Source: Thermoanaerobaculia bacterium (lineage in GTDB: Bacteria; Acidobacteriota; Thermoanaerobaculia; UBA5066). Taken from it: 64,000 bases of DNA. Position 1 is the first letter of the stretch. Every line of letters starts with the position of its first letter. Below are positions 18,463 through 63,437 of this stretch, piece after piece. Under the pieces are notes generated by a model. That model worked only from the letters and a program-made list of their open reading frames with translations. It did no database searches and was not told the origin of the DNA. The DNA is taken from the NCBI GenBank assembly GCA_963816185.1, contig CAWFJJ010000021.1, positions 1 to 64,000 on the forward strand, in the 5' to 3' direction. The position numbers and the translations under genes are program-made.

Positions 18463-18640
18463 CCCGGGGCCCCCTCTCCTTCGCGCGTGAACTCGCTTCG
18501 CTCAGACAGCACGCGCGTGCGTCGAGGAGGTCCCGGGCCGCTCCTCGGCGCGAGCGCTCCGGCCGGGCGAGATCGCCGGCTCCGAAATTCCGCCCCTCCT
18601 TCCCCTCTTCCTTTTCTAAGAAATCCCTCGGTCCCCCTCC
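18463..18640. repeat. Intergenic REP-like imperfect hairpin followed by a copy of the TTCTWAGAA motif
   Basis: CCCGGG..CGCGCGTG-AACTCGCTTCGCTCAGACAG-CACGCGCG..CCCGGG, then CTCTTCCTTTTCTAAGAAATCCCTC. Confidence 0.6.
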
Positions 18641-18711
18641 TCGTCTGATTCGTCTGGATCATGCCGAAGCGCCTCCCGGCAGCCTAGCTTTGGGTGCAAG
18701 GGAGAATTTCC

Positions 18712-19638
18712 ATGAAAATTCTGATTGCCGACGCCTTCGACGAGTCCCTTCCCGGCCGCCTCGCCCCGCTCGGCGAGGTGTTCACCGACCCCGCACATCT
18801 CAAGGACGCCGATGTCGTGCTCGTCCGCTCGAAGACGAAGGTGACGAACGAGTTCCTGAAGGGGGCGCCGAACCTGAAGCTCGTGATCCGGGGCGGCGTC
18901 GGCCTCGACAACGTCGACATCCAGGCCTGCCGCGAGCGCGGGATCGACGTGAAGAACACGCCCCGCGCGTCCTCGGTCGCCGTGGCGGAGCTCACGATGG
19001 CGCTCATGCTCGCCGTCCCGAACCGCCTCGTCGAGGGGCACACCGGCCTCAAGCAGGGACGCTTTCTCAAGAAAGAGCTCAAGCGCACCGAGCTCTTCGG
19101 AAAGACGCTCGGCCTCGTCGGCGCCGGCCTGATCGGCACGGAGGTCGCGCGGCGGGCCCAGGCGTTCGGGATGAAGGTCATCGCCTACGATCCGCAGATC
19201 GCGAATCACGCGCTCGCCACTCTCGTGGACGACCTCGACGAGCTCTTCCTGCGTGCCGACTTCATCAGCCTCCACGTCCCGGCCACGGCCGAGACCCGCG
19301 GCCTCGTGAACGAGCACACGCTCGCGAAGATGAAGGACGGCGTCGTGATCGTGAACACCGCCCGCGGCTCGATCGTCGTGGAGCCCGAGCTCGCGGCCGC
19401 GCTCGCGTCGGGGAAGGTGCGCGCTTACGCGACGGACGTCTTCCTGAGCGATCCGCCCGACCCGAACAGCCCGCTCCTGTCCGCGCCGAACGTCCTCATG
19501 ACGCCGCACCTCGGCGGCTCCAGCCGCGAGAACCTCCTGAGGATCGGCGACAGCGTCGTCGAGCTCCTCGGGAAACGACAGAAGGCGCTCGCTTTAGCGG
19601 CAAAGGAGAAGGAGACCGCGCCGGTCGCCGCGCGGTAG
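18712..19638 (+). CDS. D-2-hydroxyacid dehydrogenase, SerA-like (no ACT domain)
   Basis: RGGVGLDNVD, VAELT, GKTLGLVGAGLIG, NTARG, DVF, TPHLGGS. Confidence 0.9.
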   Translation: MKILIADAFDESLPGRLAPLGEVFTDPAHLKDADVVLVRSKTKVTNEFLKGAPNLKLVIRGGVGLDNVDIQACRERGIDVKNTPRASSVAVAELTMALMLAVPNRLVEGHTGLKQGRFLKKELKRTELFGKTLGLVGAGLIGTEVARRAQAFGMKVIAYDPQIANHALATLVDDLDELFLRADFISLHVPATAETRGLVNEHTLAKMKDGVVIVNTARGSIVVEPELAAALASGKVRAYATDVFLSDPPDPNSPLLSAPNVLMTPHLGGSSRENLLRIGDSVVELLGKRQKALALAAKEKETAPVAAR

Positions 19639-19648
19639 AGGCTTGCCG

Positions 19649-21741: not shown

Positions 21742-22971
21742 ATGGCACGAATCCGACCTTTCCCGTCCGGCCGCCCGCCGCGGAAGCTCGCTGCCCGCGT
21801 CGCCTCCGTCCCGTACGACGTCGTGGATACCCGCGAAGCCCGGGCCCTCGCCGCCGGGAATCCGTTGTCGTTCCTCCACGTCTGTCGCCCGGAGATCGAT
21901 CTTCCGGAGGACGTGGATGTCCACTCCGATGCGGTGTACGCGAAAGGGCGCGAGAACCTCGACGGCTTCTACGCGAACGGCACGCTCGAGAGCGATCCCG
22001 TACCCCGTCTCCTCGTCTACCGGCAGACCTGGAGGGGGCGCAAGCAGGACGGCCTCGTCGCCACGTGCTCGGTCGACGACTACGACGCGGACGTCATTCG
22101 CAAGCACGAGAAGACGCGCCCCGACAAGGAAAATGACCGCGTTCGGCACCTGATGACGCAGTCCGCGCACGCCGAGCCCGTGTTCCTGACCTATCGGGCG
22201 GCTGACGCGGTCGACACCCGCGTCGCGCGGGTGACCGCGGCATCCCCCGAGTTCGACTTCGAGGCTCCGGACGGGGTGAGACACACCCTTTGGATCGTGC
22301 CCGAGGGCGACGTCGCGTTCTTCGTCTCCTCGTTCGCGACGGTGCCGTTGCTTTACGTCGCCGACGGCCACCACCGCTGTGCGTCGGCCGCGCGCGCGCG
22401 CGTAGCGCTGAAGGGAAAGCTCGGGACTCTCCCCGACGAGCATCCCGTCAACTGGTTCCCGGCGGCGATCTTCCCGGACAATCAGCTCGCCATCCTGCCG
22501 TACAACCGGGTCGTGAAGGACCTCGGGGGGCTCGGAGAAGAAGATTTTCTTAGAAAGGTGCGCGAGCGGTTCGACGTTCGGCGGGCCGAAGCTCCCGAGC
22601 CTCGCCGCCGCGGCGAGTTCTCTCTCTTTTTCAAAGAAACTTGGCAGACCCTCACCCCGAACGAGCCGGTTTCCTCGAAGGACCCGGTCGCGTCCCTGGA
22701 TGTCTCGATCCTCCAGGACCGGCTCCTCGGCCCCGTCCTCGGCATCGGTGACCCCCGCACGGACCCCCGCGTCGACTTCGTCGGAGGGATCCGGGGCACC
22801 GGCGAGCTCGAGGAGCGCGTGCGCTCGGGTCGGGGAGCCGTCGCGTTCGCGATGTTCCCGACGTCCCTCGCCGAGGTCATGGCGATCGCAGATGCGGGGG
22901 CTACCATGCCGCCAAAGTCCACGTGGTTCGAGCCGAAGCTGCGGTCCGGCCTCTTCGTGCACAGATTCTGA
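21742..22971 (+). CDS. DUF1015 family protein
   Basis: PYDV, NPLSFLHV, IRKHEKTRPDKE, YVADGHHR, MPPKSTWFEPKLRSGL. Confidence 0.92.
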   Translation: MARIRPFPSGRPPRKLAARVASVPYDVVDTREARALAAGNPLSFLHVCRPEIDLPEDVDVHSDAVYAKGRENLDGFYANGTLESDPVPRLLVYRQTWRGRKQDGLVATCSVDDYDADVIRKHEKTRPDKENDRVRHLMTQSAHAEPVFLTYRAADAVDTRVARVTAASPEFDFEAPDGVRHTLWIVPEGDVAFFVSSFATVPLLYVADGHHRCASAARARVALKGKLGTLPDEHPVNWFPAAIFPDNQLAILPYNRVVKDLGGLGEEDFLRKVRERFDVRRAEAPEPRRRGEFSLFFKETWQTLTPNEPVSSKDPVASLDVSILQDRLLGPVLGIGDPRTDPRVDFVGGIRGTGELEERVRSGRGAVAFAMFPTSLAEVMAIADAGATMPPKSTWFEPKLRSGLFVHRF

Positions 22972-24243: not shown

Positions 24244-26106
24244 GTGCTCGAACCGCTTCCCGCGAAGACCCTTCTCGACTACTTTCGCTTCGCCGCTGCC
24301 AGCGGAAAACCGGAGCTTCTCGTCTCGAAGATCGGCGGGACCTGGACACCTCTCTCGGCCGAGGACTTCAGAGAGCGGACGCAAGGCCTCGCCCTCGGGT
24401 TCGCGCTCCTCGGCGTCGACCGGGACGACCGGGTCGCGATCCTCTCGGAGAACCGCCCCGAGTGGGCGATGACGGACTTCGCGGCGCTTGCCCTCGGCGC
24501 GCTCAGCGTGCCGATCTACACGAGCTACCTCGCGCCGCAGGTCGAGTACATCCTCAGGGATTCGCTCGCGAAGGTCGTGGTCGTCTCGACCGCGGTCGAG
24601 CTCCAGAAAGTGGTCGACGTCCGCGACCGCTGCCCCGAGCTCAAGCACGTGATCATCCTCGAACACGTGCCGTGGAGCGCGGGGAAGGCCACGCCTTTCG
24701 CGACCGTGGTCCAGAAGGGCCTCGCGGCCCTTCGCGCGGACCCGGGCGCCTTCGAGGAGCGCGCGTCCTCGGTCCTCCCGGGCGACCTCGCGACGATGAT
24801 CTATACATCGGGCACCACGGGCGAGCCGAAAGGCGCGATTCTGACGCACGACAACTTCGTGTCGAACGTCGCCGCGTGCTCGGCGCTCTTCGACGTGACG
24901 AGCGACACGAGCGCCCTGTCCTTCCTGCCCCTCTCGCACGTGTTCGAGCGGATGGTCGACTATCTCTATTTCTCGCGCGCCGCGACGATCACGTACGCCG
25001 AGTCGATCGACAAGCTCTCGGAGAACTTCCTCGAGGTCAAGCCTCATTGCTTCGCTGCGGTGCCGCGCGTGTACGAGAAGATGCTCATGCGCGTCCAGGC
25101 CGCCGTGGAAAAGGCTTCCCCCCTGCGCCGCGCGATCTTCTCCTGGGGCGTTTCGACCGGGATCCGCCGCCTCGCGGTCGTCGGAGCGGCAGAGGAGCCG
25201 GGATTTTTTCTGAGGCTCAGGTGCGCAATCGCCGACCGGCTCGTCTTCGGAAAGATCAAGTCGCGGCTCGGGGGCCGGTTCCGCTTCGCGATCTCGGGCG
25301 GCGCGCCGCTTGCGCGCGACGTCGCCGAGTTCTTCTGGGCGGCGGGCATCGAGGTGTACGAAGGCTACGGCCTCACGGAGACGAGCCCCGTCCTCGCCTG
25401 CAACCGCCCGGGCGAATGGCGCCTCGGCACGGTCGGTCGTGCGATCCCCGGCGTCACGTTGCGGCTCGCTCCGGACGGCGAGATTCTCGCAAAGGGTCCG
25501 AACATCATGGAAGGCGGCTACTGGCGGAAGCCCGGCGAGACGGCGAGCGTCTTCGATGCGGAGGGCTGGTTCCTCACGGGCGACATCGGCTCCTTCGACG
25601 AGGACGCGTTCCTGACGCTCACGGACCGCAAGAAGGAGATCCTCATCAACGCGTACGGCAAGAACATCGCTCCGGCGCCGATCGAGGCCGCGCTCCGTTC
25701 GGTGCGGTACGTGGCGTCCGCGGTCCTCATCGGCGACCGGCGGAAGTTCATGTCCGCGCTCATCGTGCCGAACTTCGAGAAGCTCGAGGCGTGGGCGCTG
25801 TCGTCGGGCGTGAAGTACCGGGATCGCGAGGCGCTCGTGAAGGATCCGAAAGTCCTCTCGCTCGTCAAACAGGCGATCGACATCCTCAACGGCGACGAGC
25901 CTCACGAGCGCCAGATCCGCGCGTTCACTCTTCTCAAGGACGACTTCACGATCGAGGGCGGCGAGCTGACGCCCACGATGAAGATCAAGCGCCGCGTCAT
26001 CGCCGAGAAATACAAGGACGTCATCGACAAGATGTACGCGGACGCGGAGGAGTCGCTCTCGGGAGAAAGACCCGGAGATTTCTTGGAAAGAAAGAAGAAA
26101 ATCTAG
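24244..26106 (+). CDS. Long-chain fatty-acid-CoA ligase
   Basis: YTSGTTGEPKG, FLPLSHVFER, EGYGLTETSP, TGDIG, DRKKE, ELTPTMKIKR. Confidence 0.93.
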   Translation: MLEPLPAKTLLDYFRFAAASGKPELLVSKIGGTWTPLSAEDFRERTQGLALGFALLGVDRDDRVAILSENRPEWAMTDFAALALGALSVPIYTSYLAPQVEYILRDSLAKVVVVSTAVELQKVVDVRDRCPELKHVIILEHVPWSAGKATPFATVVQKGLAALRADPGAFEERASSVLPGDLATMIYTSGTTGEPKGAILTHDNFVSNVAACSALFDVTSDTSALSFLPLSHVFERMVDYLYFSRAATITYAESIDKLSENFLEVKPHCFAAVPRVYEKMLMRVQAAVEKASPLRRAIFSWGVSTGIRRLAVVGAAEEPGFFLRLRCAIADRLVFGKIKSRLGGRFRFAISGGAPLARDVAEFFWAAGIEVYEGYGLTETSPVLACNRPGEWRLGTVGRAIPGVTLRLAPDGEILAKGPNIMEGGYWRKPGETASVFDAEGWFLTGDIGSFDEDAFLTLTDRKKEILINAYGKNIAPAPIEAALRSVRYVASAVLIGDRRKFMSALIVPNFEKLEAWALSSGVKYRDREALVKDPKVLSLVKQAIDILNGDEPHERQIRAFTLLKDDFTIEGGELTPTMKIKRRVIAEKYKDVIDKMYADAEESLSGERPGDFLERKKKI

Positions 26107-32307: not shown

Positions 32308-34287
32308 CTATTCCCCTCCGTTGCGGACATTCCCGCCGACGGCGGTGCGCAGGAGCTCGGCGACGCTCCAGGCCTGGGCCACGCAGCCGCGCGGGCGGTG
32401 GGGTGCGTCGCCGTCGAAGAGCTCCGGGATCTGCCCGAGGCCTTCGCCGAGCAGGAAGTCCGCGAGCGGGGTGAGCAGCTCGCGCATCGCCTCGGCGGTC
32501 TTCGGCCCTTCCCCGTTCACGCGGCGGAAAGCCGCGGCATAGGCTCCGAGAAGCCACGGCCACGCCGTGCCCTGGTGATAGGCCGAATCCCGTTCCACGG
32601 GACCTCCTTCGTAGCGGCCGCGGTACGCCGGGTCACTCGGCGAGAGCGTGCGGAGCCCGTACGGCGTCAGGAGGTGCTCCTCGACGACCGCGAGGACGTG
32701 CCGTGCGAGGGACATGGGAACCATCGAGTGGTGCAGGCTCACGGCGAAGAGCTGGTTCGGGCGGATCGAGCGGTCGCGGATCGACTCACCGGGGCCGTCG
32801 ACGCAGTCGACGAGGCCTCCCCCCGATCCGAGGTCCTCGGGAAAGATTCTTAGAAAGGAGGATCGGCAGCTCTCCGCGCGTTCCGCATACCCATTCTCAG
32901 AAACTCTTTCTCCGATTTTCCCGGCGAAAGCCGCCATGGTCTTCAGCGCGTTGAACCACAGAGCCTGGATCTCGACTGGTTTGCCTTCGCGCGGCGTGAC
33001 AGGGCGGCCGTCGACCCGTGCGTCCATCCACGTCAGCGCCTCGCCTGCGGCGTGCCATTCAAGGAGAGAGTCCGCGCTCACCCGTATGCCGTAGCGGGTG
33101 CCGCGCTCGTGCCATGCGACGATGTCCGCGAGGACCGTGAAGAGGCGTTCGCGGACGAGCCCGAGGTCTCCCGTCGCCTCCACGTACTGCCTCACGGCCT
33201 CGAAGTACCAGAGTGTCGCGTCGATCGTGTTGTATTCGGGCTCCTCTCCCGCGTCCGGGAAACGGTTCGGCAGCATTCCCTGATCCACATGCTCCGAGAA
33301 CGCGAGGAGGATCTCCCGGGCGACCTCCGGCCGGCCGGTCGTCAGCGTGAGGCCCGGCAGCGCGATCATCGCGTCGCGGCCCCAGTCGGAGAACCACGGG
33401 TAGCCTGCGATCACCGTCGTGAGGTCTCCTCGCGCAACGAGGAACTGGTCGGCGGCGCGCGTGAGCGCGCGCACGACTGGGTCGCGTTTACCCCTCGCGG
33501 CGATCGTTTCGCGTCGGGAGGACTCGGATCTTCTTAGAAGGTGAATGTCGGACGCGGCGCGTGGGGAGACGGAAGCAACGAGGTTCGCGGTCCGGCGCGT
33601 CGTGGCGCCTCCGGAGACTTCTTCGAATGAATAGAAGAGGGTCGACGGATGCCACAGATCCTCGGTGAAGTCGAAGCCACGAGCCCTCTCCTCTTCATAC
33701 TCGAAGAATCTGTACCAGTCTCCCGCCTGCTTCGCCACGCCGTCGTGCGCGATGAAGACCTGGGGAAGACCTCTGTATGGAGCAATCCTGACGTTTCCCT
33801 CGGCGATCTCCACCGTCCGATCGAGATCGTCGTTCTCGCGTGTCAGCGCGTGGAAGTCGCGGAAGGCGACGAGCGGGCGCACCTCGAGGCCGATCGGCCC
33901 GACTTGACCGCCCCGCTCGAGAATCCGCCACGTCACGCACACGGTGTTCTCGCCGTGCGGCATGAAGACTTCCTTCTCGACTCCGACGCCGTCGGCCTCG
34001 AAGACCCATGTCGGAAACGGCTCGAGTCGGAAGTCCATCAGGAAGCGGAAGCCCTCGGGGTAAGTCGTGCCGGGGTAGCGATTCGTCGAAAGGTCGATGC
34101 GCCGGCCGCCCACGAGGAGCGTCTCCTCGACTTTCGACAGGAGCACGACGCGGCCGACGGGCGGTTTCGTGGCGGCCACGAGCAGGCCGTGATACCGGCG
34201 CGTGTTCTCGCCGGCGACGGTCGACATCGCGTAGCCGCCGAGGCCGTTCGTCTCGAGCCACTCGCGCCCGTCGGGCCCGGCAGTCAC
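32308..34287 (-). CDS. Glycogen debranching enzyme / amylo-alpha-1,6-glucosidase family
   Basis: [67 protein letters not shown]; GTGA overlap. Confidence 0.92.
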
Positions 34288-39355: not shown

Positions 39356-40473
39356 CGGCCGGGCTGGTAGAGCTGGTCGAACGTGCCGTCGTCGTCGAAG
39401 TGGATCTTCTGGGCCCGGCCCCATCCGCCAAACACGTCATCGATCGTGAAAAGGGAGACTTTCGAGAAGTCGCCGGCGCGGGCGGCGGCAACCTTCGCAC
39501 TCCCCGGCCGGAAGTGATGCTTCGCGGCGATTGCCTGCGCCTCGTCCGTGTAAAGGAACTCGAGGTAGGCCTGCGCCGCGGCGCGCGTGGCGTGCTTGTC
39601 GGCGTTCCGGTCCACGAGGGCGACGGGCGGCTCGGCGAGGATGCTCACGGACGGGACGACGATCTCGAAACGCCCCTTGCCGACATCGTTCGTCAAGAGG
39701 AGCGCCTCGTTCTCCCAGGCGATGAGGACGTCGCCGAGGCCGCGCTCGGCGAATGTCGTCGTGGAACCACGAGCGCCCGCGTCGAGAACGGAGACGTTCC
39801 GGAAAAGAGCGAAGAGGAAGTCGCGCGCCGTCCTTTCGCTTCCGCCGGTTCGCTTCATCGCGTACCCCCAGGCCGCGAGGTAATTCCATCGCGCGCCGCC
39901 GGAGGTCTTCGGATTCGGCGTGATGACCGCAATCCCGGGCTTCGCGAGATCTTCCCAATCCCGGATCTTCTTCGGGTTCCCCGAGCGGACGACGAAGACG
40001 ATCGTGGAAGTGAAGGGGGCGCTGTTCCTCGGAAGGCGCGCCTGCCATGTCTTCGGCAGGAGGCCCGACCGCGACGCGATCGCGTCGATGTCTCCCGAGA
40101 GCGCGAGGGTCACGACGTCGGCCTCGAGGCCGTCGATGACGGAACGAGCCTGCTTGCCCGACCCGCCATGCGACTGGTTGATCGTGACCTTCTGGCCGGT
40201 CCTGGCGGACCAGGCCTTCGCGAACGCGGCGTTGATCTCCTCGTACAGCTCGCGCGTCGGGTCGTACGAGACGTTCAGGAGAGTCGCGGCAGGTGACGCG
40301 GCGAGTAGGGAATACGAACGCACCGAGGACGAAGACCAAGAGGAATGGAAGATTTCTGCGAATGAAAGAACAGCGAGGGTGGCCAGAGCGCCAAGGAAGA
40401 CGTGGCGGCGCTGGCCGCGAGACCAGACCCGAGGCAAGCCGTGAATTTGGAGGAAACGAACGAACGTCGCCAT
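39352..40473 (-). CDS. sbp: Sulfate-binding periplasmic protein
   Basis: [48 protein letters not shown]. Confidence 0.93.
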
Positions 40474-40527
40474 GGCCTATTACCTTCTGAGAAATCTTTC
40501 TCTCTCTGTTCTTCGTTCTTATATTAT

Positions 40528-43371: not shown

Positions 43372-44045
43372 TTCCGCCTCTTCTCCTTCAGGAAGGCGTC
43401 CAGCGCGAGGACGCGGCGCGCCGCCTCGACGGTGACGCGCACCGTGATCGTCGCGCCCGTGACAGGCCGCACCCCTCGTTTTTCCGAGAGCTCGTCCGTC
43501 AGCGTCTTGCCGGAGAATTGCCCGTACCAGTTGGCACGCGGGAGATACTCCTCCGGCTCGGAAGAAGAGAGGATCTCGATCCGCGCGATCGCTCCCTTCG
43601 GATCGACGAGGACGAGCAGGGTCTCGGGCTCGGTACGCACGACGTGCGTGTCGAAGTAGACCGTGCCGAGGTCTGTGGCCGCGGAACTGCCCGTGTAGAA
43701 GACGACGAGGCCGGGCGGCGGCGCGCCGCCCGAGCGGCGCGCGACCTCGGCGCGGTCGGCCTCGGAGAGGAACGCCGTCTTCCGCGTCACGACCGTGCCC
43801 TTCGGAAACGCGAGGCGCAGCGCCTCTTCCTGAGTCAAGAAACTCTTCGCGAGAGAAAGAGAGGAAGAGAGGAGGAAAAGGAAGAAGAAGATTTCTTTGA
43901 ATGGAAAGAGAAAGAGGGGATGCGTCCCCGGCCGATCGGAGTCAAGGGTCGACGACCGCTGCGCGGCGCGCAAAGCGCGCCCTTGACGCCGATCGGCCGG
44001 TAACAGATTTCCATCTATCGGCGGCTGCATCAGCAGCCGCCGCAT
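43368..44045 (-). CDS. FMN-binding (flavinylation target) protein; start uncertain (44096 or 44045)
   Basis: VTGATIT motif, EEALRLAFP, DTHVVRT, EPEEY; in operon with ApbE. Confidence 0.8.
   Translation of the reverse strand: MRRLLMQPPIDGNLLPADRRQGRALRAAQRSSTLDSDRPGTHPLFLFPFKEIFFFLFLLSSSLSLAKSFLTQEEALRLAFPKGTVVTRKTAFLSEADRAEVARRSGGAPPPGLVVFYTGSSAATDLGTVYFDTHVVRTEPETLLVLVDPKGAIARIEILSSSEPEEYLPRANWYGQFSGKTLTDELSEKRGVRPVTGATITVRVTVEAARRVLALDAFLKEKRRK
43928..44000. repeat. REP-like hairpin with 21-bp arms (1 mismatch) inside the FMN-binding ORF 5' region
   Basis: CCGGCCGATCGGAGTCAAGGG (43928-43948) ... CCCTTGACGCCGATCGGCCGG (43980-44000). Confidence 0.85.
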
Positions 44046-44085: not shown

Positions 44086-45465
44086 CTAAAACTCATATCC
44101 CAAAGCTACGTTCAACTGCTTCACCCCTGTGTACGCCGCGTTCCGCCGCCACTGGCCGTCGGCCTTCAGGACGATCTGCGGAATCGGCTTGAAGTTCACA
44201 CCCGCCGTGAAGACCCGCACGTCGCTCTCCGGATTTCGCGCGTAGCCCACGGGCACCTCCGCCTGGGTGTCGTAGGCCTCGTGTCTCACGAAAGGCGTGA
44301 GAGTCATCCGGCTCTTCGGGACGAGAGAGAAGACGTCGAAGCCCGCCTCGACGTACCAGCCTTCCTGCGTCTTTCCGACCGATTCGTCCCCCTCGAGGCC
44401 GTTCGCCTGATTGATGGCCGTCGCATCCTCGACCGTGGAGCGCGCCCACACCGCGCGAAAGGACGCGCCGCGGTACCGCGCGTCGAGGTGCAGGTCGACG
44501 AACGTCGTGCGGCCGGCGAAGGAGTCTCCCGAGGGCGTGACGTGTCCCTGCCCGGAGTTCCCGGAGAAGAACGAGCCGCCGACGAGGACGCCGGGCAGAC
44601 CCGTGTAGTCGAGCCGGCCGGTCACGGCGAAGCTTCTCGCGAGCGCGAGCGAGCCCTCGCCGCTGCCCTCCTTCAGGCCGTCGGCGGCATAGCGCGACGC
44701 GTCGAGCCCGTTCACGAAGTAGAGGCGCCACGAAAACGGTCCGACGTCGCCCCACCCGCCGACCCCGATCTCACGCCACGTCGAGGGAAGGATGATGGTC
44801 TCGACGTCCGGCCGCAGCGAGCCCAGGAAGACCGGCGGCTCGTGGAGCTGGTTGATGAGTCCCACGGGAATGAGCATGAGGCCCGCGCGGAGGTTGAAGG
44901 CCTTCGAGCGGCTGAGCCAGTCCAGGTAGGCGAATTCCGCTTCGGCCTCGCCCTCCTTGTCGGACGCCGTCACCGCATGCTCGAACTCGATCTCGCTGTT
45001 GAAGACGAAGCGATCGTCGAACTTGTAGCCGAAGTAGAGGACGGCTCGCGCGACGTCGACGATGGGCGTGAGGTTCGACCTAGACCCGTCCTGACGCACG
45101 GTCGAGAAGTCCTGGTAGATGGTCTCGCCGTAGCCGCCGATCGAGACGCCGTTCTTCGCGTAGACCTTCGAGGCCGACGGCCCCAGGCCGAGCGTGGGCG
45201 TCGACGGGGGAGCCGCAGCCGCGGCTGGCGTGCCCGGAGCGGGGGGAGGCTGCTGCGCCGGCGTTTCACCGAGGCGCATCGACTCGATCTCCTTCGTGAG
45301 CACGTCGACCTTCTGCTCGAGCTCCTTCAGGCGCTGCTCCCGCTCCTCGTCGGATTTCGGTGGCTCGTCTGCGAGGGCGGGGAGGGAGGGGAGAAGACTG
45401 CTTAGAAAGAGCAAGAGACCGATCGCGGCGGCACCGCGGAGGCGCGTCGAGAAGCGTTGGTTCAT
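44086..45465 (-). CDS. Outer-membrane beta-barrel / porin with N-terminal coiled coil
   Basis: Signal peptide, coiled coil, IGGYGE, FNSEIEFEH, HEP, C-terminal LGYEF. Confidence 0.82.
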   Translation of the reverse strand: MNQRFSTRLRGAAAIGLLLFLSSLLPSLPALADEPPKSDEEREQRLKELEQKVDVLTKEIESMRLGETPAQQPPPAPGTPAAAAAPPSTPTLGLGPSASKVYAKNGVSIGGYGETIYQDFSTVRQDGSRSNLTPIVDVARAVLYFGYKFDDRFVFNSEIEFEHAVTASDKEGEAEAEFAYLDWLSRSKAFNLRAGLMLIPVGLINQLHEPPVFLGSLRPDVETIILPSTWREIGVGGWGDVGPFSWRLYFVNGLDASRYAADGLKEGSGEGSLALARSFAVTGRLDYTGLPGVLVGGSFFSGNSGQGHVTPSGDSFAGRTTFVDLHLDARYRGASFRAVWARSTVEDATAINQANGLEGDESVGKTQEGWYVEAGFDVFSLVPKSRMTLTPFVRHEAYDTQAEVPVGYARNPESDVRVFTAGVNFKPIPQIVLKADGQWRRNAAYTGVKQLNVALGYEF

Positions 45466-46511
45466 GGTTGACCTCCTTCGGATTTCTTAGAACGAGCAAG
45501 AGGGAGAGGCGCTGGGGCGGGGGCAGCACGCGCGACGGACGTCCCCGGCGCGAGCACGGCCGACGGGGTCAGTTCGACGAACCTCTTCATTCCAGGCGAC
45601 ATGGAGACCCGCAGGCGTTGCCCCTCTTCTCCTTCGAAGAAAAACAGCGTTTCATGAGTGACGCCTTCTGCCCGTAGGCGCTCAGACAGCGCCAAGCCCT
45701 CTTCTGGTCCGAGGACGAAGAACGCCGTGGAGAGGATGTCTGCGGTGAGTCCGTCCTTCGCAACGACGGTGACGGAGCCGAAGTCGGGCGCGGGGTGGCC
45801 CGTCCGAGGGTCGAGAAGGTGGCCGATCCGCCGGCCATTCACGACGACAGATCGCTCGGAATTGCCCGAGGTGGAGGCGGACGCGCCCTTCAGGCGGAGT
45901 GTGGCAACGGTCCTCGCGCGATCGAGGGGAGAGGCGGCATCGACGGACGTGTCCTCGCCGAATACGAGGATCTGTCCGCCGAGGTCCAGCAGTCCGGAAG
46001 CGGCGCCGGCGTCGCGCATCGCGGCCGCCGCTCGGTCGAGTGCCCACCCTTTACCCCAGGCGCCTTCGTCGATGCCCGCGGCGGCGTCGTGCCGCGAGAC
46101 CGACGAAGAGGATTCTTCGAAGGAAAAGAGGGACGGGTCGGTGGCTCGGCGCGCGGCGAGCAGCTCCGCGAAGCCCGGAATGCGTCCTCCGTTGCGAAGC
46201 CCCCATGCCCTCACGAGAGGTGCCACCGCCGGGTCGAACGCACCGCCGGTTCGTTTCTCCCAATCGAAGACACTTGTCAGCAACGCGAAGAGCTCCGGCG
46301 GAATTCGCGTCGCGACGCCGGGTGCTGCGGCGTTCAAGCGGGCGAGGGGAGTGTCTTCCCGCCAGGTGGAGAGGAGCGCCTCGATCCGCTCGATCTCCCG
46401 CACCCCCGCTTCGCTCGCCGTGAGCGCCGCGCTCCGCGTCGGAGCGGAGACCGTCAAAGCCAGCGCGGTCCCCATGGCCGCGAGATGGCGGACGATCGTC
46501 TCGTTGCTCAT
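45462..46511 (-). CDS. apbE: FAD:protein FMN transferase
   Basis: AMGT, TGGAFDPAV, WGKGWALD, DLGG, STSGNSER, GHLLDPRTG, ADILSTA. Confidence 0.92.
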   Translation of the reverse strand: MSNETIVRHLAAMGTALALTVSAPTRSAALTASEAGVREIERIEALLSTWREDTPLARLNAAAPGVATRIPPELFALLTSVFDWEKRTGGAFDPAVAPLVRAWGLRNGGRIPGFAELLAARRATDPSLFSFEESSSSVSRHDAAAGIDEGAWGKGWALDRAAAAMRDAGAASGLLDLGGQILVFGEDTSVDAASPLDRARTVATLRLKGASASTSGNSERSVVVNGRRIGHLLDPRTGHPAPDFGSVTVVAKDGLTADILSTAFFVLGPEEGLALSERLRAEGVTHETLFFFEGEEGQRLRVSMSPGMKRFVELTPSAVLAPGTSVARAAPAPAPLPLARSKKSEGGQP

Positions 46512-47960: not shown

Positions 47961-48659
47961 TCAGTTCTTCACGAGGAAGCCGTATCGGACGAAGACCTCT
48001 CGGGCGGCTTTCGAAGAAAGGTATTCGAGGAATTTCCGTGCCGCTGCCTCGCGGGGAGCACCCTTCACGAGAGCGAAAGGATAGGAAATCGAAGGTCCGG
48101 TTGCGGCCGGAACCTCGAAGGCGACGCGCACCCGCTTCGAGATCGCGGCATCGGTCCGGTAGACGAGTCCGGCGTCGACGTTTCCGGACTCGACGGCGGC
48201 GAGCGTAGCCCGGGCGTTCTCGGTCGGAACGACCTTCGATGCGACGGCCCCCCAGATCCCGGCCCTTTCGAAGAAATTCTTCGAATAGACCCCCACGGGA
48301 ACCGACGTCGGTTCTGCAATTGCGAGCGTCCCGACGCGCGGCCCGGCGAGGTCCTTCTCCGAAACGATTTTCAGCGGGCTTCCCGCCGGCACGACGACAA
48401 CGAGCTCGTTCGAAAGGACGCTGCGGCGCGTCTCCGGCACGAGGAGCCCGGCTTTCTGAAGCGTGTCCATCTGGGCTTCGTCCGCCGAAAGAAAGAGATC
48501 AGCGGGCGCCCCTTCGCGGATCTGCCGGGCGAGCGTGCTGGAGGATGCGAAGTTGAAAGCGATCTTCTCCCCGCCGCTCTTTTCCCACGCCGTCCCGATC
48601 GCCGTCAGGGCGTCCGTCAGGCTCGCGGCGGCGAAGACGAGAACGAGAGCTTCCTTCAT
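47961..48659 (-). CDS. modA: Molybdate-binding protein
   Basis: FAAASLTDA, ASSSTLARQI..GAPADLFLSAD, VPVGVY, GLVYRTD; no obvious signal peptide from this start. Confidence 0.9.
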   Translation of the reverse strand: MKEALVLVFAAASLTDALTAIGTAWEKSGGEKIAFNFASSSTLARQIREGAPADLFLSADEAQMDTLQKAGLLVPETRRSVLSNELVVVVPAGSPLKIVSEKDLAGPRVGTLAIAEPTSVPVGVYSKNFFERAGIWGAVASKVVPTENARATLAAVESGNVDAGLVYRTDAAISKRVRVAFEVPAATGPSISYPFALVKGAPREAAARKFLEYLSSKAAREVFVRYGFLVKN

Positions 48660-50395: not shown

Positions 50396-51076
50396 TTATG
50401 AGGTGGAGGGCGAGGCTGGAGAGGCGCTGGCGCCTGGAGACGGCGCCGGCGTCGGAGTCGGCGTGGGCGCGATCTGGGGATGGCCGAGCCGAGAGTCGAT
50501 CTCGAGGTTCAATGCGAGGACGTTGACCCGGCTTTCTCCGTAGAGGCCGAGAAACCGCCCCTCGGTGTTCCTGGCGACGAGCGCCTCGAGATCGGTGGCG
50601 GGAATCCGGGTCTCACGAGCGACGCGCGAAATCTGCAGGCGCGCGTACTCCGGGGAGATGTGGGGGTCCACGCCCGAGGCGGACGACGTTACGGCGTCGG
50701 CCGGGACGGCCCCGCTGGCCCCCTCGTCGCTTCTCACGGCCGTCACGGCGTCCTTGACGGAGTCGGCGAGCTTCTTGGAGGTCGGGCCGAGATTCGTGCC
50801 GCCCGACGCAGTCGGATCGTAGCCGTTGCCAGCCGCGGACGGACGGCCGTGGAAGTGGCCCGGCATCACGAACGCCTGGCCGATCAGCGACGAGCCCATC
50901 ACCGCGCCGGGGCTCGTCCCCTCTTTCCTTCTAAGAAAGCTCCCGTTCGCGGCGTCCCGAAAAGCGAGTTGTCCGAGGCCCCAGACAGCGGCCGGATAGA
51001 GCAGTCCGAGGAGCACCGTCAGCGCCAGGAAGAGCCTCAGAGAGCCGAGCACGTTTTCTTTCATCTCAGACCTCAA
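50396..51076 (-). CDS. kdpC: K+-transporting ATPase subunit C
   Basis: [47 protein letters not shown]. Confidence 0.95.
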
Positions 51077-54932: not shown

Positions 54933-54943
54933 GTCGGCCCCGT

Positions 54944-55027: not shown

Positions 55028-55041
55028 GGATGGTTCTCCCT

Positions 55042-56490: not shown

Positions 56491-56535
56491 GGGGGGGAAC
56501 GTGCCTCCCGGACTCCAAGGAAGTCCGGAAAGACG

Positions 56536-56557
56536 TCTAAAGAAGTTCTAAAGAAAT
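56536..56557 (-). promoter_or_regulatory. KdpE-type direct repeat operator
   Basis: TTTAGA-N5-TTTAGA on the minus strand (11-bp period), like TTTATA-N5-TTTACA, in the divergent kdp promoter region. Confidence 0.65.
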
Positions 56558-56610
56558 GCAATCACTGGACTAGACTCCCGCGGTGCTGCAGCAGAGATGG
56601 ATGAACTGAG

Positions 56611-58590: not shown

Positions 58591-58599
58591 GCGTCTAGA

Positions 58600-59298: not shown

Positions 59299-60695
59299 CC
59301 GATCTCCTCGGCCGGCGCTGCGGCGGCGGGGACTTCGAAGCGTGCGATCGTGCCGCCTCCCGGACGGTCCACGAGCGCGATCGACCCGCCCAGCGCGTGC
59401 GCGAGCGACTGGCAGATCGTCAGCCCCAGCCCGGCGCGGCCGGCATCGCCCGGCGCACCGCCCGCAGCGGCGCGCTTCACGTCGGGGGAGACGCCTGAAC
59501 CGCGGTCGAGGACGTCGAGGCGGACGCGCGCGGCGTCACGCGGGCTCGGCGCGGCCGCCAGCTCCAGCGTCCCGGATGGGGCCGCGCGCGAGGCGTTTTC
59601 CAGAAGGTTCGCGAGGATCTCGACCGCGAGCGTCGGATCCACGTAAAGGTCCGGCGTCTGGGGCGCCACGAAGACATCCACGGCGCGCCCCGCGAGGGCG
59701 AGCGGGAGGGCGTCGAGCGTCGCCCGGAACAGGTCTGCCGCAGGCGTCGGCTCGGGGTGCGGCACGAACGTGCCCGCGTCGAGGCGCGCCATCGCGAGGA
59801 GGTTGTCGATCCGACGCGAAAGGCGCTCGGTCTCTCGTGCCACGTCCTCGACGATTTTCGCGGTCTCCGCGGGGAATCGCTTCAGGCGGTCGAGCCCGAG
59901 GCGAATGGACGTGATCGGCGTCCTCAGGTCGTGGGACACGGCGCGCAGGAGCGAGGTCTTGAGGGCGTCGCTCTCTTTGAGGGCGTCGAGGTGCGCCCGC
60001 TCCCCCAGGAACCGCTCCCGCTCGACGGCCAACGCCACCAGCCGTCCGACCGACTCCAGGGCGCCGCGGTCTGCGCGGGTCCCCCGGACGACGAGAACAC
60101 CGCTGGTCTTCCCGCCGACGGCCAAAGGAAGATAGACGTCGCGCGCGCCACCCTCCGCGGGCACCTCGGCGGTCTCGCCGCGTCGTCCGACGGTCTCCAC
60201 GAGCGGATCCTCGGCATGGAGGGCGTTCTCGCCCATCACGCCGACGATTTCTGCCCGGGTGGCCTCGTTGCGAAAGAGGGCGAGCCCGCCGGCCCGGGCC
60301 CCGAGCGTCTTCAGAGCTTTCCCCGCCGCCTCGCCGAGGGCCCCGACGCGGTTCGTGGCCGTGAAAAGGTCGATCGAGAGATCGTAGAGCGCCTCGATCT
60401 CCGCGCGCCGGGCGTCTGCGTCGGCGGCGCGCTGCTGCTCCCGTGCCACGAGCCGGCTCACGACGACGGACGTAATGAGAAAAGCGGCCAGGGCGACCCA
60501 ATTCGCGGGGTCGGCGATCGTAAACGTGCCGATGGGGGGCAGGAAGAAGAAGTTGTAGCAGGCGGTCGCGGCGAGCGACGCGACGGTCGAGGCCACGAGG
60601 CCGAGCCTCAACGCGGCCAGGAGAACGACGACGAGGAAGACGAAACCGATCGTCGTGGCGTTGGCTCCCGTGAGCCGTCCGAGCGCCGTCGTCAC
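59295..60695 (-). CDS. KdpD C-terminal sensor kinase (DUF4118 TM + GAF + HisKA/HATPase); start uncertain
   Basis: YNFFFLPP..TFTIADPANWVAL, SHDLRTP, NLLENA, DRGSG, GLGL. Confidence 0.88.
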   Translation of the reverse strand: MTTALGRLTGANATTIGFVFLVVVLLAALRLGLVASTVASLAATACYNFFFLPPIGTFTIADPANWVALAAFLITSVVVSRLVAREQQRAADADARRAEIEALYDLSIDLFTATNRVGALGEAAGKALKTLGARAGGLALFRNEATRAEIVGVMGENALHAEDPLVETVGRRGETAEVPAEGGARDVYLPLAVGGKTSGVLVVRGTRADRGALESVGRLVALAVERERFLGERAHLDALKESDALKTSLLRAVSHDLRTPITSIRLGLDRLKRFPAETAKIVEDVARETERLSRRIDNLLAMARLDAGTFVPHPEPTPAADLFRATLDALPLALAGRAVDVFVAPQTPDLYVDPTLAVEILANLLENASRAAPSGTLELAAAPSPRDAARVRLDVLDRGSGVSPDVKRAAAGGAPGDAGRAGLGLTICQSLAHALGGSIALVDRPGGGTIARFEVPAAAAPAEEIG

Positions 60696-60735
60696 GGCGA
60701 CGGCGGCGAGCGCCGCCGCCGCCCGCGCAACTCCT

Positions 60736-62145
60736 CTAGCCGTGGATGTTGTGGCCGTGGACCGCCTCCGCCGCCTCGTGCATGGCTTCCGACAGCGTCG
60801 GGTGCGCGTGGATCGTGCGAATCATCTCCTCGGTCGTCGCTTCGAGGCGCAGGAGGGCGCCGCCCTCCGCGATGAGCTCGGTGGCATGCGGGCCGACGAT
60901 GTGGACGCCGAGGATCTCATCGTACTTCGCGTCGGAAACGATCTTCACGAAGCCTTCCTGCGACGGCTCCATCATCGTCTTGGCGAGGACCGAGAAGTTG
61001 AACTTTCCGGTCTTCACGACGTAGCCGCGCTCTTTCGCCTTCGCTTCGCTGAGACCGATCGACGCGACTTCGGGGTCGCAGTACGTGCAGCCCGGCACCT
61101 GGTCGCGGTTCACGGGCACCGTCGGATGGCCGGCCATCGTCTCGGCGGCCACGATGCCTTCGGCGGACGCGACGTGCGCGAGCCAGATCGTGGGCGTGAC
61201 GTCCCCGATCGCCCAGACGCCCGGCACGTTCGTGCGCTGGTTTGCGTCCACCTTCACGTAACCGCGGTCCGTCGCGACGCCCACGGCCTCGAGGCCGAGC
61301 CCCTCGGAGAGCGGCTTGCGGCCGACGGCGAGGAGCACTTTCTCGACGGACCACGACAGCGGGCCGCCGTCCGGCCCCTTCGCCTTCACCGTGACCGTCC
61401 CGTCCCCGTTCGGCGCCACGGACTCGACGCCCGTCTTCGTGCGCACCTCGATGCCGTGCTTCTTGAAGACGCGCTCGACCTCTTTCGAGATCTCCTCGTC
61501 CTCCACGGGCAGGACGCGCGGCAGGACCTCGACGAGGACGGTCTTCGTGCCGTACCGCGAGAAGCAGGACGCGAACTCGGCGCCCACCGCCCCCGAGCCG
61601 ATCACGAGGAGCGACCTCGGGATCGACTGCGACTTCAGGATGTGGTCCGAGTTCAGGACGCTCTCGCCGTCGGCCTTGAGGAGCGGCAGGTCGCGGGGCA
61701 CCGAGCCGGTTGCGATGAGGACGTTCTTCGTGTCCAGCTTGGTCTCGCCCGCGTCGCCTTTCACCGCGACCTCGTGCGGCGAGACGATGCGCCCGAGCCC
61801 CGCGTGGACGTCGACCTTGTGTTTCTTCATGAGGTATTCGACGCCCTTGGCTCCCCGAAAGACGACCTTGTCGCGGAACTTCACCACGCCCGGAAAGTCG
61901 AGCTCGACGCCGGCGGCTCTCACGCCGAAGTCTGCGGCGCGGTTCTTCGCCTCGTCGTACAAAGAGGCCGACTTGAGCATCGCCTTCGTGGGGATGCAGC
62001 CTCGGTGAAGGCAGTTGCCGCCGAGTCCCACGTTCGAAACTTTAGCGTCTCTTTCGACGATCGCGGTCCTGAGGCCGAGCTGGGAGGCCCGGACGGCGGC
62101 GACGTAGCCGCCCGGTCCCGAGCCGATGACGACCAGGTCGTACAT
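60736..62145 (-). CDS. lpdA: Dihydrolipoyl dehydrogenase
   Basis: IGSGPGGYVAA, GGNCLHRGCIPTK, GSGAVGAEF, HAHPTLSE. Confidence 0.95.
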   Translation of the reverse strand: MYDLVVIGSGPGGYVAAVRASQLGLRTAIVERDAKVSNVGLGGNCLHRGCIPTKAMLKSASLYDEAKNRAADFGVRAAGVELDFPGVVKFRDKVVFRGAKGVEYLMKKHKVDVHAGLGRIVSPHEVAVKGDAGETKLDTKNVLIATGSVPRDLPLLKADGESVLNSDHILKSQSIPRSLLVIGSGAVGAEFASCFSRYGTKTVLVEVLPRVLPVEDEEISKEVERVFKKHGIEVRTKTGVESVAPNGDGTVTVKAKGPDGGPLSWSVEKVLLAVGRKPLSEGLGLEAVGVATDRGYVKVDANQRTNVPGVWAIGDVTPTIWLAHVASAEGIVAAETMAGHPTVPVNRDQVPGCTYCDPEVASIGLSEAKAKERGYVVKTGKFNFSVLAKTMMEPSQEGFVKIVSDAKYDEILGVHIVGPHATELIAEGGALLRLEATTEEMIRTIHAHPTLSEAMHEAAEAVHGHNIHG

Positions 62146-62222
62146 TCCAATCTCCTATAGGTCCGGCCGGCGCACGTGCGCGGAGGCGGCGCCGGAGCGA
62201 ACGGAATTATAGGGGGAGTCTC

Positions 62223-63437
62223 TCACCCGAAAAGGACGCCGAGAAGCCCGCCTGCGAGGACGAGCCAGGCCGTGTTGATTCTCACGGCCGCGAGAATCGC
62301 GACGCTCACGAGAAAGAGCGCGATCGTCGGGCCGTTCGTCAGCGCGGGCCGCGCGAATTGAAGCGTCACGGACCCCATCAGCGCGAGCGCCGCGACGTTC
62401 ACGCCGTCGAGAAACGCACCCAGGACCTTCGACTGCCGCAGCCGGGGCACGAAAGGGCCCATGACGAAGACCAGGGCGAACGCGGGAAGGAAGATCCCGA
62501 GCGTCGCGACCCCGGCGCCCTTCAGACCCCCGAGCACGTAGCCGATGAACGTCGCGGTGGACAGCAGCGGCCCCGGCGTGAACTGGCCGACGGCGACGGC
62601 ATCGAGGAGCTGCCCGCTCGTGAGCCAGTGCCAGCGCTCGACGAGATCGGCCTTCAGATAGGCGAGCAGCACGTAGCCGCTGCCGAACAGCACGGCACCG
62701 GTCTTCAGGAAGAAGAGGAAGAGGCTGGTAAGAGAGAAGGGCGAAAGAGGAGCGCCGAGGGAGAAGAGGGGGACGAAGAGGGATTTCTTGGAAAGAGGAA
62801 GAGAAGATTTCCTAGAAAGTGAATTGGGCGGGGCGCCGTCGACGCGCTCCGGCGCGTGCGGCGCAGCGGCACCGCCGCCTCTTCCCCTTCTAAGAAAATC
62901 CTCAGACACCATCGCCAGAATCGAGACACACCCTGAAACGAGCAGCAGGAGAAGCTCGTTGACGAAGAAAGTGGCGGCAAGGGCGGCGAGTCCCAATGCC
63001 AGAAGGAACCGGCTTTTCACCGCCGTGCGGCCGAGGCTGACGAGCGCCTGCGCGATGAGCGCGAGGACCACGGGCTTGATGCCGTCGAAGAAATGCGGAA
63101 ACGCGGGCAGAGAGCCGAAGCGCACGTAGGCCCACGCAAAGGCGGTCACGAGGAAGGTCGCGGGCAGAAGGAAGCCGACTCCGGCGACGAGAAGCCCCGC
63201 CCAACCTCCGCGTGCATGCCCGATGAAGAGCGCCATCTTGGTGGAGTTCGGTCCTGGCGCGAGGTTCGTCGCACCGAGGAGGTCGAGAAACTCCTCGCGT
63301 GTCATCCACGCGCGCCGCGTCACGACCTCGTGCTCCATCATCGAGATGTGGGCGGCGGGCCCGCCGAAGGCCGTCGCGCCGAGGCGCAGGAAGAGGATGG
63401 CGAGGTCCTTCAGGTCGGCGGGGTTCCCTCTCGCCAT
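62223..63437 (-). CDS. chrA: Chromate ion transporter (long-chain CHR)
   Basis: AFGGPAAH, PGPNS, LFGSGYVL, GQFTPGP; expanded interdomain linker. Confidence 0.92.
   Translation of the reverse strand: MARGNPADLKDLAILFLRLGATAFGGPAAHISMMEHEVVTRRAWMTREEFLDLLGATNLAPGPNSTKMALFIGHARGGWAGLLVAGVGFLLPATFLVTAFAWAYVRFGSLPAFPHFFDGIKPVVLALIAQALVSLGRTAVKSRFLLALGLAALAATFFVNELLLLLVSGCVSILAMVSEDFLRRGRGGGAAAPHAPERVDGAPPNSLSRKSSLPLSKKSLFVPLFSLGAPLSPFSLTSLFLFFLKTGAVLFGSGYVLLAYLKADLVERWHWLTSGQLLDAVAVGQFTPGPLLSTATFIGYVLGGLKGAGVATLGIFLPAFALVFVMGPFVPRLRQSKVLGAFLDGVNVAALALMGSVTLQFARPALTNGPTIALFLVSVAILAAVRINTAWLVLAGGLLGVLFG
62763..62905. repeat. Three copies of the TTCTWAGAA-type motif, outer pair inverted, within the chrA linker
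   Basis: GAGGGATTTCTTGGAAAGAGGAAGAG, GAAGATTTCCTAGAAAG, and CCTCTTCCCCTTCTAAGAAAATCCTC. Confidence 0.8.

Follow-up and report, generated by a model that had tools for sequence, protein, structure and literature searches.

A directional, often paired DNA motif of about 30 bp in and between the genes of an uncultured genus of Thermoanaerobaculia: a candidate chromosomal signal

Genome-wide DNA signals that invade coding sequence are known from very few lineages, i.e. those with the DNA uptake sequence (DUS) or the uptake signal sequence (USS) and those with HIP1, and each of these signals has opened a mechanistic field. HIP1 of the cyanobacteria (GCGATCGC) is a symmetric 8-mer that is lineage-specific, abundant both in and between genes and maintained at the DNA level, with no polarity or pairing rule; the Rickettsia palindromic element (RPE) is a whole conserved element inserted in frame in protein-coding genes. 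We compared with such systems a motif with the core TTCTWAGAA, which an earlier note, made from the letters alone, had pointed out in a 64-kb stretch of DNA (the window, i.e. positions 1-64000 of contig C21 of the source assembly, G000) from an uncultured soil genus of Thermoanaerobaculia (Acidobacteriota). The source assembly (5.09 Mb in 30 contigs, ~67% G+C, 95% complete) and all of the genomes compared with it are metagenome-assembled genomes.

For uptake sequences, one study (PMC2817400) places 34.5-65% of the copies in open reading frames (ORFs), with a preference for poorly conserved residues and with none in genes that lack homologues in relatives; another (PMC2397512) gives a DUS density of ~1 per 1.1-1.5 kb and describes paired DUS, at most 21 nt apart, that function as terminators. 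Like DUS (Neisseriaceae) and USS (Pasteurellaceae), the motif has an over-represented core within an extended consensus, is equally common on the two strands, enters ORFs in the frames that tolerate it, is lineage-specific, is scarce in foreign-looking DNA and turns over between species (PMC2817400, PMC2397512). It differs from them in being 7-15 times sparser, in lying mostly in inward-facing pairs 40-250 bp apart and in having purine-rich sequence on both flanks. A study of REPINs in P. fluorescens (PMC3116915) reports that 93% of doublets are inverted, with spacings of 71 or 110 bp and a less conserved spacer, and that 14/1067 REP 16-mers overlap genes. Inverted ends, a preferred spacing, the occurrence of singles, a copy number in the hundreds and vertical inheritance are common to REPINs, as described there, and to the motif (PMC3116915). 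However, unlike in REPINs, about half of the motif units are intragenic, their spacers are unrelated and not merely less conserved, there is no hairpin covariation, and a search of 19 motif-bearing genomes gave no associated RAYT in 17 of them.

[quoted passage not shown] It is distinguished from HIP1 by being ~30 bp long, asymmetric and paired; its pairing and polarity rule is shown by none of DUS/USS and HIP1. Our best reading is that the motif belongs to neither the USS/DUS nor the REPIN family, that it matches no repeat family described so far and that it joins USS/DUS-like dynamics to REPIN-like geometry, its function being unproven. The explanation that we favor, tentatively and with somewhat less than even confidence, is that it is a lineage-specific recognition site in double-stranded DNA, often paired, for a trans-acting candidate protein of unspecified function. 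Throughout the genus, the motif affects which codons and amino acids are used in hundreds of genes.

The motif is genome-wide and conserved at the DNA level

TTCTWAGAA occurs seven times in the window, against 0.05 expected and a maximum of one in 100 dinucleotide-preserving shuffles. These are the seven copies that the earlier note had listed (at 18614, 22547, 32847, 33531, 45484, 50929 and 62888), all of which are present; its own hand estimate of the expectation was well under 0.1 per 64 kb. The TTCTSAGAA copies that it had placed at 32894 and 40485 are also present, although this form is not significant alone (2 vs. 0.32 expected, with 2/100 shuffles reaching 2). In the 5.09-Mb genome there are 337 copies of TTCTWAGAA vs. 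5.6 expected from an order-3 Markov model, in near-equal orientations (165 TTCTTAGAA and 172 TTCTAAGAA), with hundreds of sites distributed over all of the large contigs; the motif is thus genome-wide, and indeed genus-wide (see below), and is not restricted to the window. It is the most over-represented 9-mer of the genome by a wide margin, homopolymer runs excepted. Poly-A/T is itself frequent for a genome of 67% G+C: its 11-mer is the commonest 11-mer (1073 counts), and its 9-mer is present 1083 times vs. 7.2 expected.

All 337 copies conform to the directional, purine-rich consensus that had been drawn from the window: a site of ~30 bp consisting of a purine run, GAT, TTCTTAGAA and GGTGAAGAGGG. 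The upstream purine run is often GAAGAG-like and is followed by R-G-R-W-T and the core, and downstream there is GG(G/T)GAA and then more G/A, i.e. both flanks are purine-rich and the core is the most invariant part. A position weight matrix (PWM) built from the 337 exact copies gave 736 matches at the threshold of 16 bits, vs. 119 in reversed-sequence controls, and 416 vs. 19 at 25 bits. The density of sites is therefore one per ~7 kb (PWM) to ~15 kb (exact core). The near-matches that had been proposed by eye are real: the PWM recovers those at 26080, 33619, 43893, 45399, 45633, 46113, 62785 and 62809, and those at 22630 (TTCAAAGAA) and 40354 (GGAAGAT-TTCTGCGAA-TGAAAGAA) are partner ends by sequence reading. 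The note's author knew of no described motif that matched; in agreement with this, a full-text literature search for both 9-mers gave no bacterial motif among the matches listed, which included eukaryotic STAT sites and primers. We also considered a sigma-70 promoter, and rejected it as the hexamer spacing misfits in either direction (by eye).

We determined whether the protein sequence could account for the genic copies by shuffling synonymous codons within each gene, with protein and codon usage fixed, in 20 replicates. Genes were taken from a home-made, crude codon-score caller (4048 genes, with 84% of bases genic and 16% non-coding). TTCTWAGAA was seen 146 times in genes vs. 2.4 +/- 1.6 after shuffling (maximum 5), a ~60-fold excess, and since the proteins were kept in this comparison, protein sequence is not the explanation of the motif. 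All four of the stop-free phases are used by the exact genic copies, of which 77 are in the sense and 69 in the antisense orientation. The stop-free variant core TTCTTCGAA is present in 287 copies, of which 197 are genic vs. 60.4 +/- 6.4 under codon shuffling. Of these 197, 113 are in the two phases in which TAG or TAA would arise in frame from the canonical core, whereas two of the four phases used by the canonical core have few copies of the variant (6 vs. 37 and 3 vs. 21). The use of TTCTTCGAA in the forbidden frames, together with its excess over shuffling, indicates that the DNA motif is kept as far as the frame allows. The conservation is therefore at the DNA level, as had been claimed, and not at the protein level; the comparison with a codon-aware null model, which the note had named as a possible refutation, does not refute it, and the data exclude both chance and protein-level conservation as explanations.

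The composition of the sites raises the question of whether a reader is needed at all, as purine-rich tracts around a TTTCTTA island might owe their spread to ectopic gene conversion over short patches, or to template switching, between purine-rich (Glu/Lys/Arg-coding) or pyrimidine-rich tracts, or be prone to H-DNA formation. The flanks are roughly mirror-symmetric in their purine richness, genic sites lie in purine- or pyrimidine-rich codon runs (e.g. EEDFLRK, EEFFEGEE and PSKKSSL), the reversed, non-complemented 9-mer is also raised (15-58 copies in the genus vs. 3-17 in other genera), and motif positions are not conserved above their surroundings, all of which would fit such a mutational by-product. 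However, the core is the most invariant part and not the free loop that H-DNA would have, template switching within a unit should yield covarying ends where none are seen, and neither conversion nor H-DNA explains the strict inward polarity described below. We consider this account quite improbable.

The sites are distributed between genes and intergenic DNA. Using the same gene set, 178 of the 337 exact copies are intergenic and 43% are in ORFs, and when sites are grouped into 488 units the midpoint lies inside a called gene for 94/184 pairs and 160/304 single sites. The statement in the note that most sites lie in coding sequence was thus too strong, also for the window, where the sites at 18614, 40354/40485 and 43893 are intergenic and those at 45484/45633 lie past the ApbE domain. 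Single sites show no strand bias relative to GC skew: with positive skew there are 80 plus and 72 minus, and with negative skew 21 plus and 30 minus. A signal of the matS/parS type, which the note had suggested, or of the KOPS or Chi type is thus not supported, and a replichore-polar signal is excluded. Sites are depleted in low-GC DNA, with 0.1-0.6 per 10-kb window below 65% G+C vs. 1.3-1.7 at 65-69%, which is notable because the motif is itself AT-rich. The first 18 kb of the window (1-18000), which are somewhat lower in G+C (62-69%) and have a strongly negative AT skew at the start, hold no copy of the motif; as had been reported, no exact TTCTTMGAA is present there, and this region fits more recently acquired DNA.

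Inward-facing pairs with unrelated interiors

The main structural fact about the motif, which the earlier note missed, is that its sites form inward-facing pairs. Among exact cores less than 1 kb apart, 63/87 neighbor pairs face inward; inward-facing pairs 40-250 bp apart hold 428 of the 736 PWM matches, and below 200 bp there are 202 inward-facing neighbor pairs vs. 2 facing outward. In the window the pairs are 22547/22630, 32847/32894, 40354/40485, 45484/45633 and 62809/62888. The spacing peaks at 74-79 bp (36/214 pairs) and spikes again at exactly 93 bp, with 11 pairs; no consistent helical period was found outside the 74-79 bp peak.

We considered whether the 93-bp spike marks a subfamily of elements, and rejected this, as 9 of the 11 pairs are in paralogous Ser/Thr kinase genes, where the ends are read as EEF(F/L)EGEE and SFEEIP and bracket native kinase-domain sequence. 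Paralogues of these kinases with a beta-propeller tail (G000:C24:602-621 kb, C23 and C28:51.7 kb) share the position of the pair within the kinase domain, also in the sister genus. Similarly, in a GHMP kinase gene the pair brackets 155 bp of the gene, with the right end on IHLSKKIP, just before GGGLGGGSS and inside the GHMP_kinases_N match, and two other species have a pair, with a spacing of 70 bp, around the conserved VGSxLIGQxF segment of kdpC. Comparison of all 214 interiors gave only 25 similar pairs, which form four clusters, all small (of 9, 4, 3 and 2 interiors), with that of 9 in the paralogous kinase genes. For the 62 pairs in confident genes the coding score per codon was 0.083 in the interior vs. 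0.215 in the rest of the gene, and about half of these interiors reach at least half of their gene's coding level, so that native coding interiors and linker or loop interiors are both common. Inward pairs 300-4000 bp apart were considered as autonomous elements and rejected; of four enclosed ORFs tested (one ferredoxin/beta-lactamase-fold, one FG-GAP and two without a family), none is a transposase.

The two ends of a unit vary independently of each other. In 20 units with exact cores and spacings of 73-81 bp, base pairing between the flanks over 26 positions was 66.2%, vs. 68.8% when right ends were dealt randomly, and 489/500 dealt sets equaled or exceeded the same-unit figure; over the 12 positions of the inner arm, where the register is imperfect because of one-base indels, it was 47.9% vs. 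46.3%. The interiors had a mean fold-energy z of -0.33, with 6.9% below -2, vs. -0.16 and 4.4% in random genomic controls. Given this lack of covariation between ends, the unit is not a palindrome that was copied, nor a hairpin maintained by compensatory change, but a couple of separate matches to one consensus whose relative orientation is fixed.

This result bears directly on the possibility that the motif is an ancient REPIN- or MITE-type element, whose ends would be the terminal inverted repeats of an unknown or lost transposase, with single sites as decayed halves and genic copies as in-frame insertions. The inward doublets with a preferred spacing of 74-79 bp are as in REPINs, whole units are present or absent between species (C28:41143 and C28:34047, see below), the left end of intergenic units peaks 10-60 bp after stop codons, the sites in chrA and kdpC are in lineage-specific insertions, and about half of the 62 intragenic interiors score below their gene in coding. 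However, the interiors are unrelated, several of them being native conserved coding sequence, the ends do not covary and the interiors have no fold, about half of the units are intragenic, and the intragenic spacings have no excess of multiples of three (the remainder is 0 in 28, 1 in 18 and 2 in 20). The putative empty TA target TTCTTAAGAA, the expected residue of a TA-duplicating element, has 0 copies, and as for a target-site duplication there is no direct repeat beyond a possible TA.

The search for matching machinery was likewise negative. Y1_Tnp/RAYT (PF01797) has 0 matches in the source assembly and is found in 2/18 genomes of the genus vs. 8/12 motif-free outgroup genomes; no TnpB was found; and the single DDE_Tnp_1 and DDE_3 genes of the source assembly carry no motif, DDE_Tnp_1_2 was not found, and other transposase families were not searched. 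The DDE_Tnp_1 gene (G000:C30, ~38.3-40.0 kb) has 42-nt inverted repeats made of CAGCT-like short repeats (L267:1011-1057 and 2624-2665), which have no relation to the motif. IS5-family ends beside their YTAR target bear a likeness to TTAG with GAAGGTG after it; this is a lead only, which nothing in the source assembly supports. Membership of the REPIN/RAYT family is excluded, a classical MITE or RPE is very unlikely for the genic copies, and a mobile origin in general we regard as unlikely. The note's suggestion of a decayed MITE terminus fits the paired, polar architecture and is contradicted by the unrelated or native coding interiors, the lack of covariation between ends and the lack of a matching transposase among those found.

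An inverted pair could also act in RNA or single-stranded DNA, with its ends pairing in transcripts as a terminator, a site for RNase III or a stabilizer of mRNA, and it would give the same hairpin in both directions of transcription. The intergenic left end does peak 10-60 bp past a same-strand stop codon (73/144 cases), and the right end is like the junction between the 16S 3' end and its spacer, with the left end like the complement. However, there are no compensatory changes between ends and no excess interior fold energy, 304/488 units are single sites, which are also common to several species, and single sites fall equally on the two strands of genes (77 sense vs. 69 antisense). Nor are pairs enriched between convergent genes, whose gaps hold 8/90 intergenic pairs vs. 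15% of intergenic bases, and there is no Rfam match in the window. We therefore consider a hairpin function very unlikely. The 16S likeness itself is between the 3' end plus spacer start (G000:C1:445500-445640; ...GATCACCTCCTTT, then CTAAGGGATC across the junction) and the right-end motif CATTCACC(C)TTCTAAGAAATC. Mimicry of 16S or of an extended Shine-Dalgarno sequence was rejected as a probable coincidence, because the sites use either strand and every frame and are remote from start codons.

Inverted repeats of one consensus that flank short segments, both genic and intergenic, are also what would be expected of invertons, i.e. segments flipped by a master invertase that reads the repeats. 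However, the orientation of the interior is identical across species in every orthologue alignment made, notional inversion leaves the interior free of stops in 38/66 intragenic pairs vs. 41.1 +/- 3.3 expected, and some interiors code for the conserved core of an enzyme that is probably essential. We hold inversion to be an extremely unlikely explanation.

Range, site history and a possible reader of the motif

The motif has a sharp phylogenetic boundary. All 18 of the sampled genomes of the genus have 79-346 copies, vs. 0-4 in 12 genomes of seven other genera in the order; the latter counts include G019 and G024, which are flagged as unpublished, and the 10 other outgroup genomes give the same picture. 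In a sample of 201 genomes of the class (including G193 and G196, also flagged as unpublished), the motif-rich genomes are the source assembly and 11/11 others of the genus. Other genera of the family are represented by eight genomes, seven of them with 0-8 copies and one, G174, with 45. G174, which represents a sister genus and is the one genome outside the genus that is rich in the motif, agrees with the genus in the flanks and in the kinase site, and its inward pairs are 64-176 bp apart, two of them at 77 bp; G079, of that sister genus, is motif-poor. In practice the motif can serve as a diagnostic marker of the genus.

Two genomes of other families of the class, G181 (136 copies) and G059, were rejected as carriers of the motif, as the 9-mer is there inside an unrelated repeat with different flanks. 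This repeat (...GGGATGACAC...CCGCGTAAATACTGGGAGT-TTCTTAGAA-GCCGC...) often lies within ~160 bp of contig ends, a location that suggests an unrelated mobile or REP-like sequence that breaks assemblies; the shared 9-mer is a coincidence. In another family of the class, G200:C146 holds a tandem array of ~27-bp units (GAAGAACTGGCCTTCTTGGAA-like) that contains the 9-mer twice and is probably a coding repeat.

We followed the history of individual sites in three syntenic regions and three further genes, measuring conservation in BLAST-alignable DNA. Many sites are at the same position in several species. The kdpC core is exact in G000, G007, G004 and G012 and decayed in G005, G008, G010 and G014; in G003, G009, G013 and G017 and in all eight outgroup sequences it is absent and the loop is 5 codons shorter. 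In the glycogen debranching enzyme (GDE) gene the site at 33531 is exact in 7/12 sequences of the genus and has one mismatch in 4 more; the outgroups have LLR-type residues with GC-rich codons, in a linker where the outgroup alignment is weak. The outgroup rows in the kdpC, chrA and GDE alignments include G024 and G019 as single rows. At the right end in the GHMP kinase gene, the central base varies synonymously (TCT, TCC, TCG and TCA) and ATT-CAC-CTT is kept in 10/11 sequences. Most chrA orthologues in the genus have recognizable ends around an interior that varies in sequence and in length (~45 to 130 bp).

Turnover is seen at the level of whole regions and whole units. In the region of the window, G003, G007 and G011 have 10-13 sites, of which 7-10 are shared with G000, and more distant genomes share 0/4 to 3/8, their remaining sites being at aligned positions that are motif-free in G000 or in unaligned DNA. 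The intergenic unit at C28:41143 is absent from G003 and G017, both of the two relatives that aligned across it, and that at C28:34047 is absent from G011 and G017 (2/8) and is a shortened remnant in G008, G016 and G018.

These dynamics are those expected if the motif were an uptake or self-recognition signal, a version of the explanation that we favor in which a surface receptor prefers motif DNA, and uptake and recombination fill the tolerant positions of the core genome. The strong excess, the equality of the strands, the use in ORFs of all permissible frames, the position of sites at permissive or loop positions written by codon choice, the scarcity in DNA that is low in GC and probably foreign (the window's first 18 kb among it), the lineage specificity shared with the sister genus and the turnover between species would all follow. 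ComEC and DprA are present in the source assembly, but these are widespread in bacteria and do not discriminate. However, the density is 7-15 times below that of DUS/USS, pairs at 40-250 bp with strict inward polarity are not predicted, and the density is uneven between contigs. We consider this version rather unlikely; of the note's proposal of a DNA uptake sequence, the evolutionary behavior remains viable, and the paired geometry and the low density are what it does not account for.

In the more general form that we favor, a candidate protein would bind the asymmetric ~30-bp site, which has an inner and an outer face, in a fixed orientation, and the working unit would often be two facing sites across 40-250 bp, mostly ~76 bp, of arbitrary DNA. 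The pair geometry suggests that two bound protomers may touch across the interior; strict inward polarity with non-covarying ends is as expected if two sites, each bound by protein, have to face one another. Sites would arise in place, wherever the DNA tolerates them, by point substitutions and small indels and without delivery by a mobile element; in genes this would take the form of rare AT-rich codons, with TTCTTCGAA substituting where TAG or TAA would terminate. They would disappear again as they decay or when the whole unit is deleted. Since an origin in place without a mobile element means that a high copy number needs selection or a biased process, copy number would be upheld by selection at the level of sites or by a bias of the USS/DUS type, e.g. 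preferential uptake and recombination of motif DNA. The anatomy and polarity of the sites, their origin at the DNA level, their phylogenetic range and their turnover are shown by the analysis; we infer that a protein reads the site, that the pair is bridged and that the cell benefits.

A further step would be to see in the motif an undescribed class of chromosomal signal, in which a candidate protein reads inward ~30-bp pairs about seven helical turns apart that are kept by selection or by a self-recognition drive; this we hold to be possible, with confidence clearly short of even. Such a class may combine the dynamics of uptake sequences with the geometry of transposon ends, without a mobile element, its sites being written by codon choice into the conserved domains of probably essential genes. 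Because the boundary of the motif is sharp (the genus and part of the sister genus), a reader protein, if it exists, should be findable by phylogenetic profiling, and could give a handle on DNA uptake, recombination or chromosome organization in Thermoanaerobaculia.

Several results weigh against a protein-read site. Genic identity at motif positions was 0.749 vs. 0.834 elsewhere (35 kb plus 20 kb of syntenic DNA), identity at third codon positions was 0.712 in the motif vs. 0.687, and outside genes the values were 0.801 and 0.805; as motif identity is not above that of its neighbors, purifying selection on individual sites is not demonstrated. The clean presence or absence of whole intergenic units looks like a mobile or deletion-prone element. 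Some 700 highly specific sites, many of them in ORFs, are unusual for the known site-specific binding proteins of bacteria. Gene positions come from the home-made caller, with 19 genes checked with Pfam. Finally, there is an unexplained, roughly five-fold spread in density between large contigs, from 4.5 to 21.7 per 100 kb. By contig, C29, C25, C8 and C5 have 4.5-9 per 100 kb vs. 20-22 in C24, C28 and C21; these differences could reflect chromosome domains, a second replicon or binning.

Sites within the 64-kb window

The sites found in the window are collected in Table 1. Pfam confirmed DUF1015, glycogen debranching enzyme, ApbE, KdpC, ChrA, AMP-binding enzyme and solute-binding protein among the host genes there, and Pkinase and GHMP kinase among other hosts; the gene at 44086-45465 (-) has no Pfam match.

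Table 1. Motif sites in the window, with positions counted from its first letter.
Feature	Position	Strand	Core sequences and readings	Spacing or PWM score	Context
Single site	18614..18622	-	TTCTTAGAA on the minus strand	34.8 bits	Intergenic, between ABC transporter gene (16457-18412 +) and 2-hydroxyacid dehydrogenase gene (18712-19638 +)
Inward pair	22547..22638	.	Left 22547-22555 TTCTTAGAA, read EEDFLRK; degenerate right 22630-22638 TTCAAAGAA, after a pyrimidine run	83 bp	DUF1015 gene (21823-22971 +)
Single degenerate site	26080..26088	+	TTCTTGGAA, read PGDFLERKKK	24.4 bits	C-terminal end of AMP-binding (acyl-CoA ligase type) gene (24244-26106 +)
Inward pair	32847..32902	.	32847-32855 (+) TTCTTAGAA; 32894-32902 (-) TTCTGAGAA	47 bp	GDE_C domain of glycogen debranching enzyme gene (32308-34287 -)
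Two same-orientation sites	33531..33627	+	33531-33539 TTCTTAGAA, gene sense GACATTCACCTTCTAAGAA = DIHLLRR; 33619-33627 TTCTTCGAA, read FEE		GDE_N/GDE_C linker of the same gene (32308-34287 -)
Inward degenerate pair	40354..40493	.	40354-40362 (+) TTCTGCGAA; 40485-40493 (-) TTCTCAGAA	131 bp	Intergenic, between solute-binding protein gene (39352-40323 -) and Rrf2 regulator gene (40575-40976 +)
Single site	43893..43901	+	TTCTTTGAA, preceded by a long purine run	27.9 bits	Intergenic
Single degenerate site	45399..45407	+	TGCTTAGAA	22 bits	Antisense, codons ~20 onward of gene 44086-45465 (-)
Inward pair	45484..45641	.	45484-45492 (+) TTCTTAGAA; 45633-45641 (-) TTCTTCGAA	149 bp	Downstream of ApbE domain, 19 bp upstream of the ATG of gene 44086-45465
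Single stop-free variant	46113..46121	+	TTCTTCGAA	22.8 bits	Antisense in the ApbE domain coding region
Single stop-free variant	48267..48275	-	TTCTTCGAA	20.4 bits	Sense strand of solute-binding protein gene (47961-48659 -)
Single site	50929..50937	-	Read GS-FLRRKEG		Sense strand of kdpC (50396-51064 -), in a loop 5 codons longer than that of the other genera
Element with two left ends	62785..62896	.	Left ends 62785-62793 TTCTTGGAA and 62809-62817 TTCCTAGAA; right end 62888-62896 TTCTTAGAA, minus strand	79 bp	Inter-domain linker of chrA (62223-63437 -)

A practical consequence of such sites is that the motif gives rise to artefacts in assembly and annotation, as gene callers can be misled by AT-rich islands, rare codons and TAG/TAA in repeats. 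At 45484-45641 both ends are recognizable in 6/6 aligned relatives, with exact TTCTTMGAA-type cores in some of them and with indels in the interior. We also compared low-depth, fragmentary contigs of four public runs with positions 43501-63500 of the window. Among the joints listed there was no change of strand at the units; one contig replaces part of the interior of 45484-45641 (joint from 45478 to 45578), and another replaces 43852-44088.

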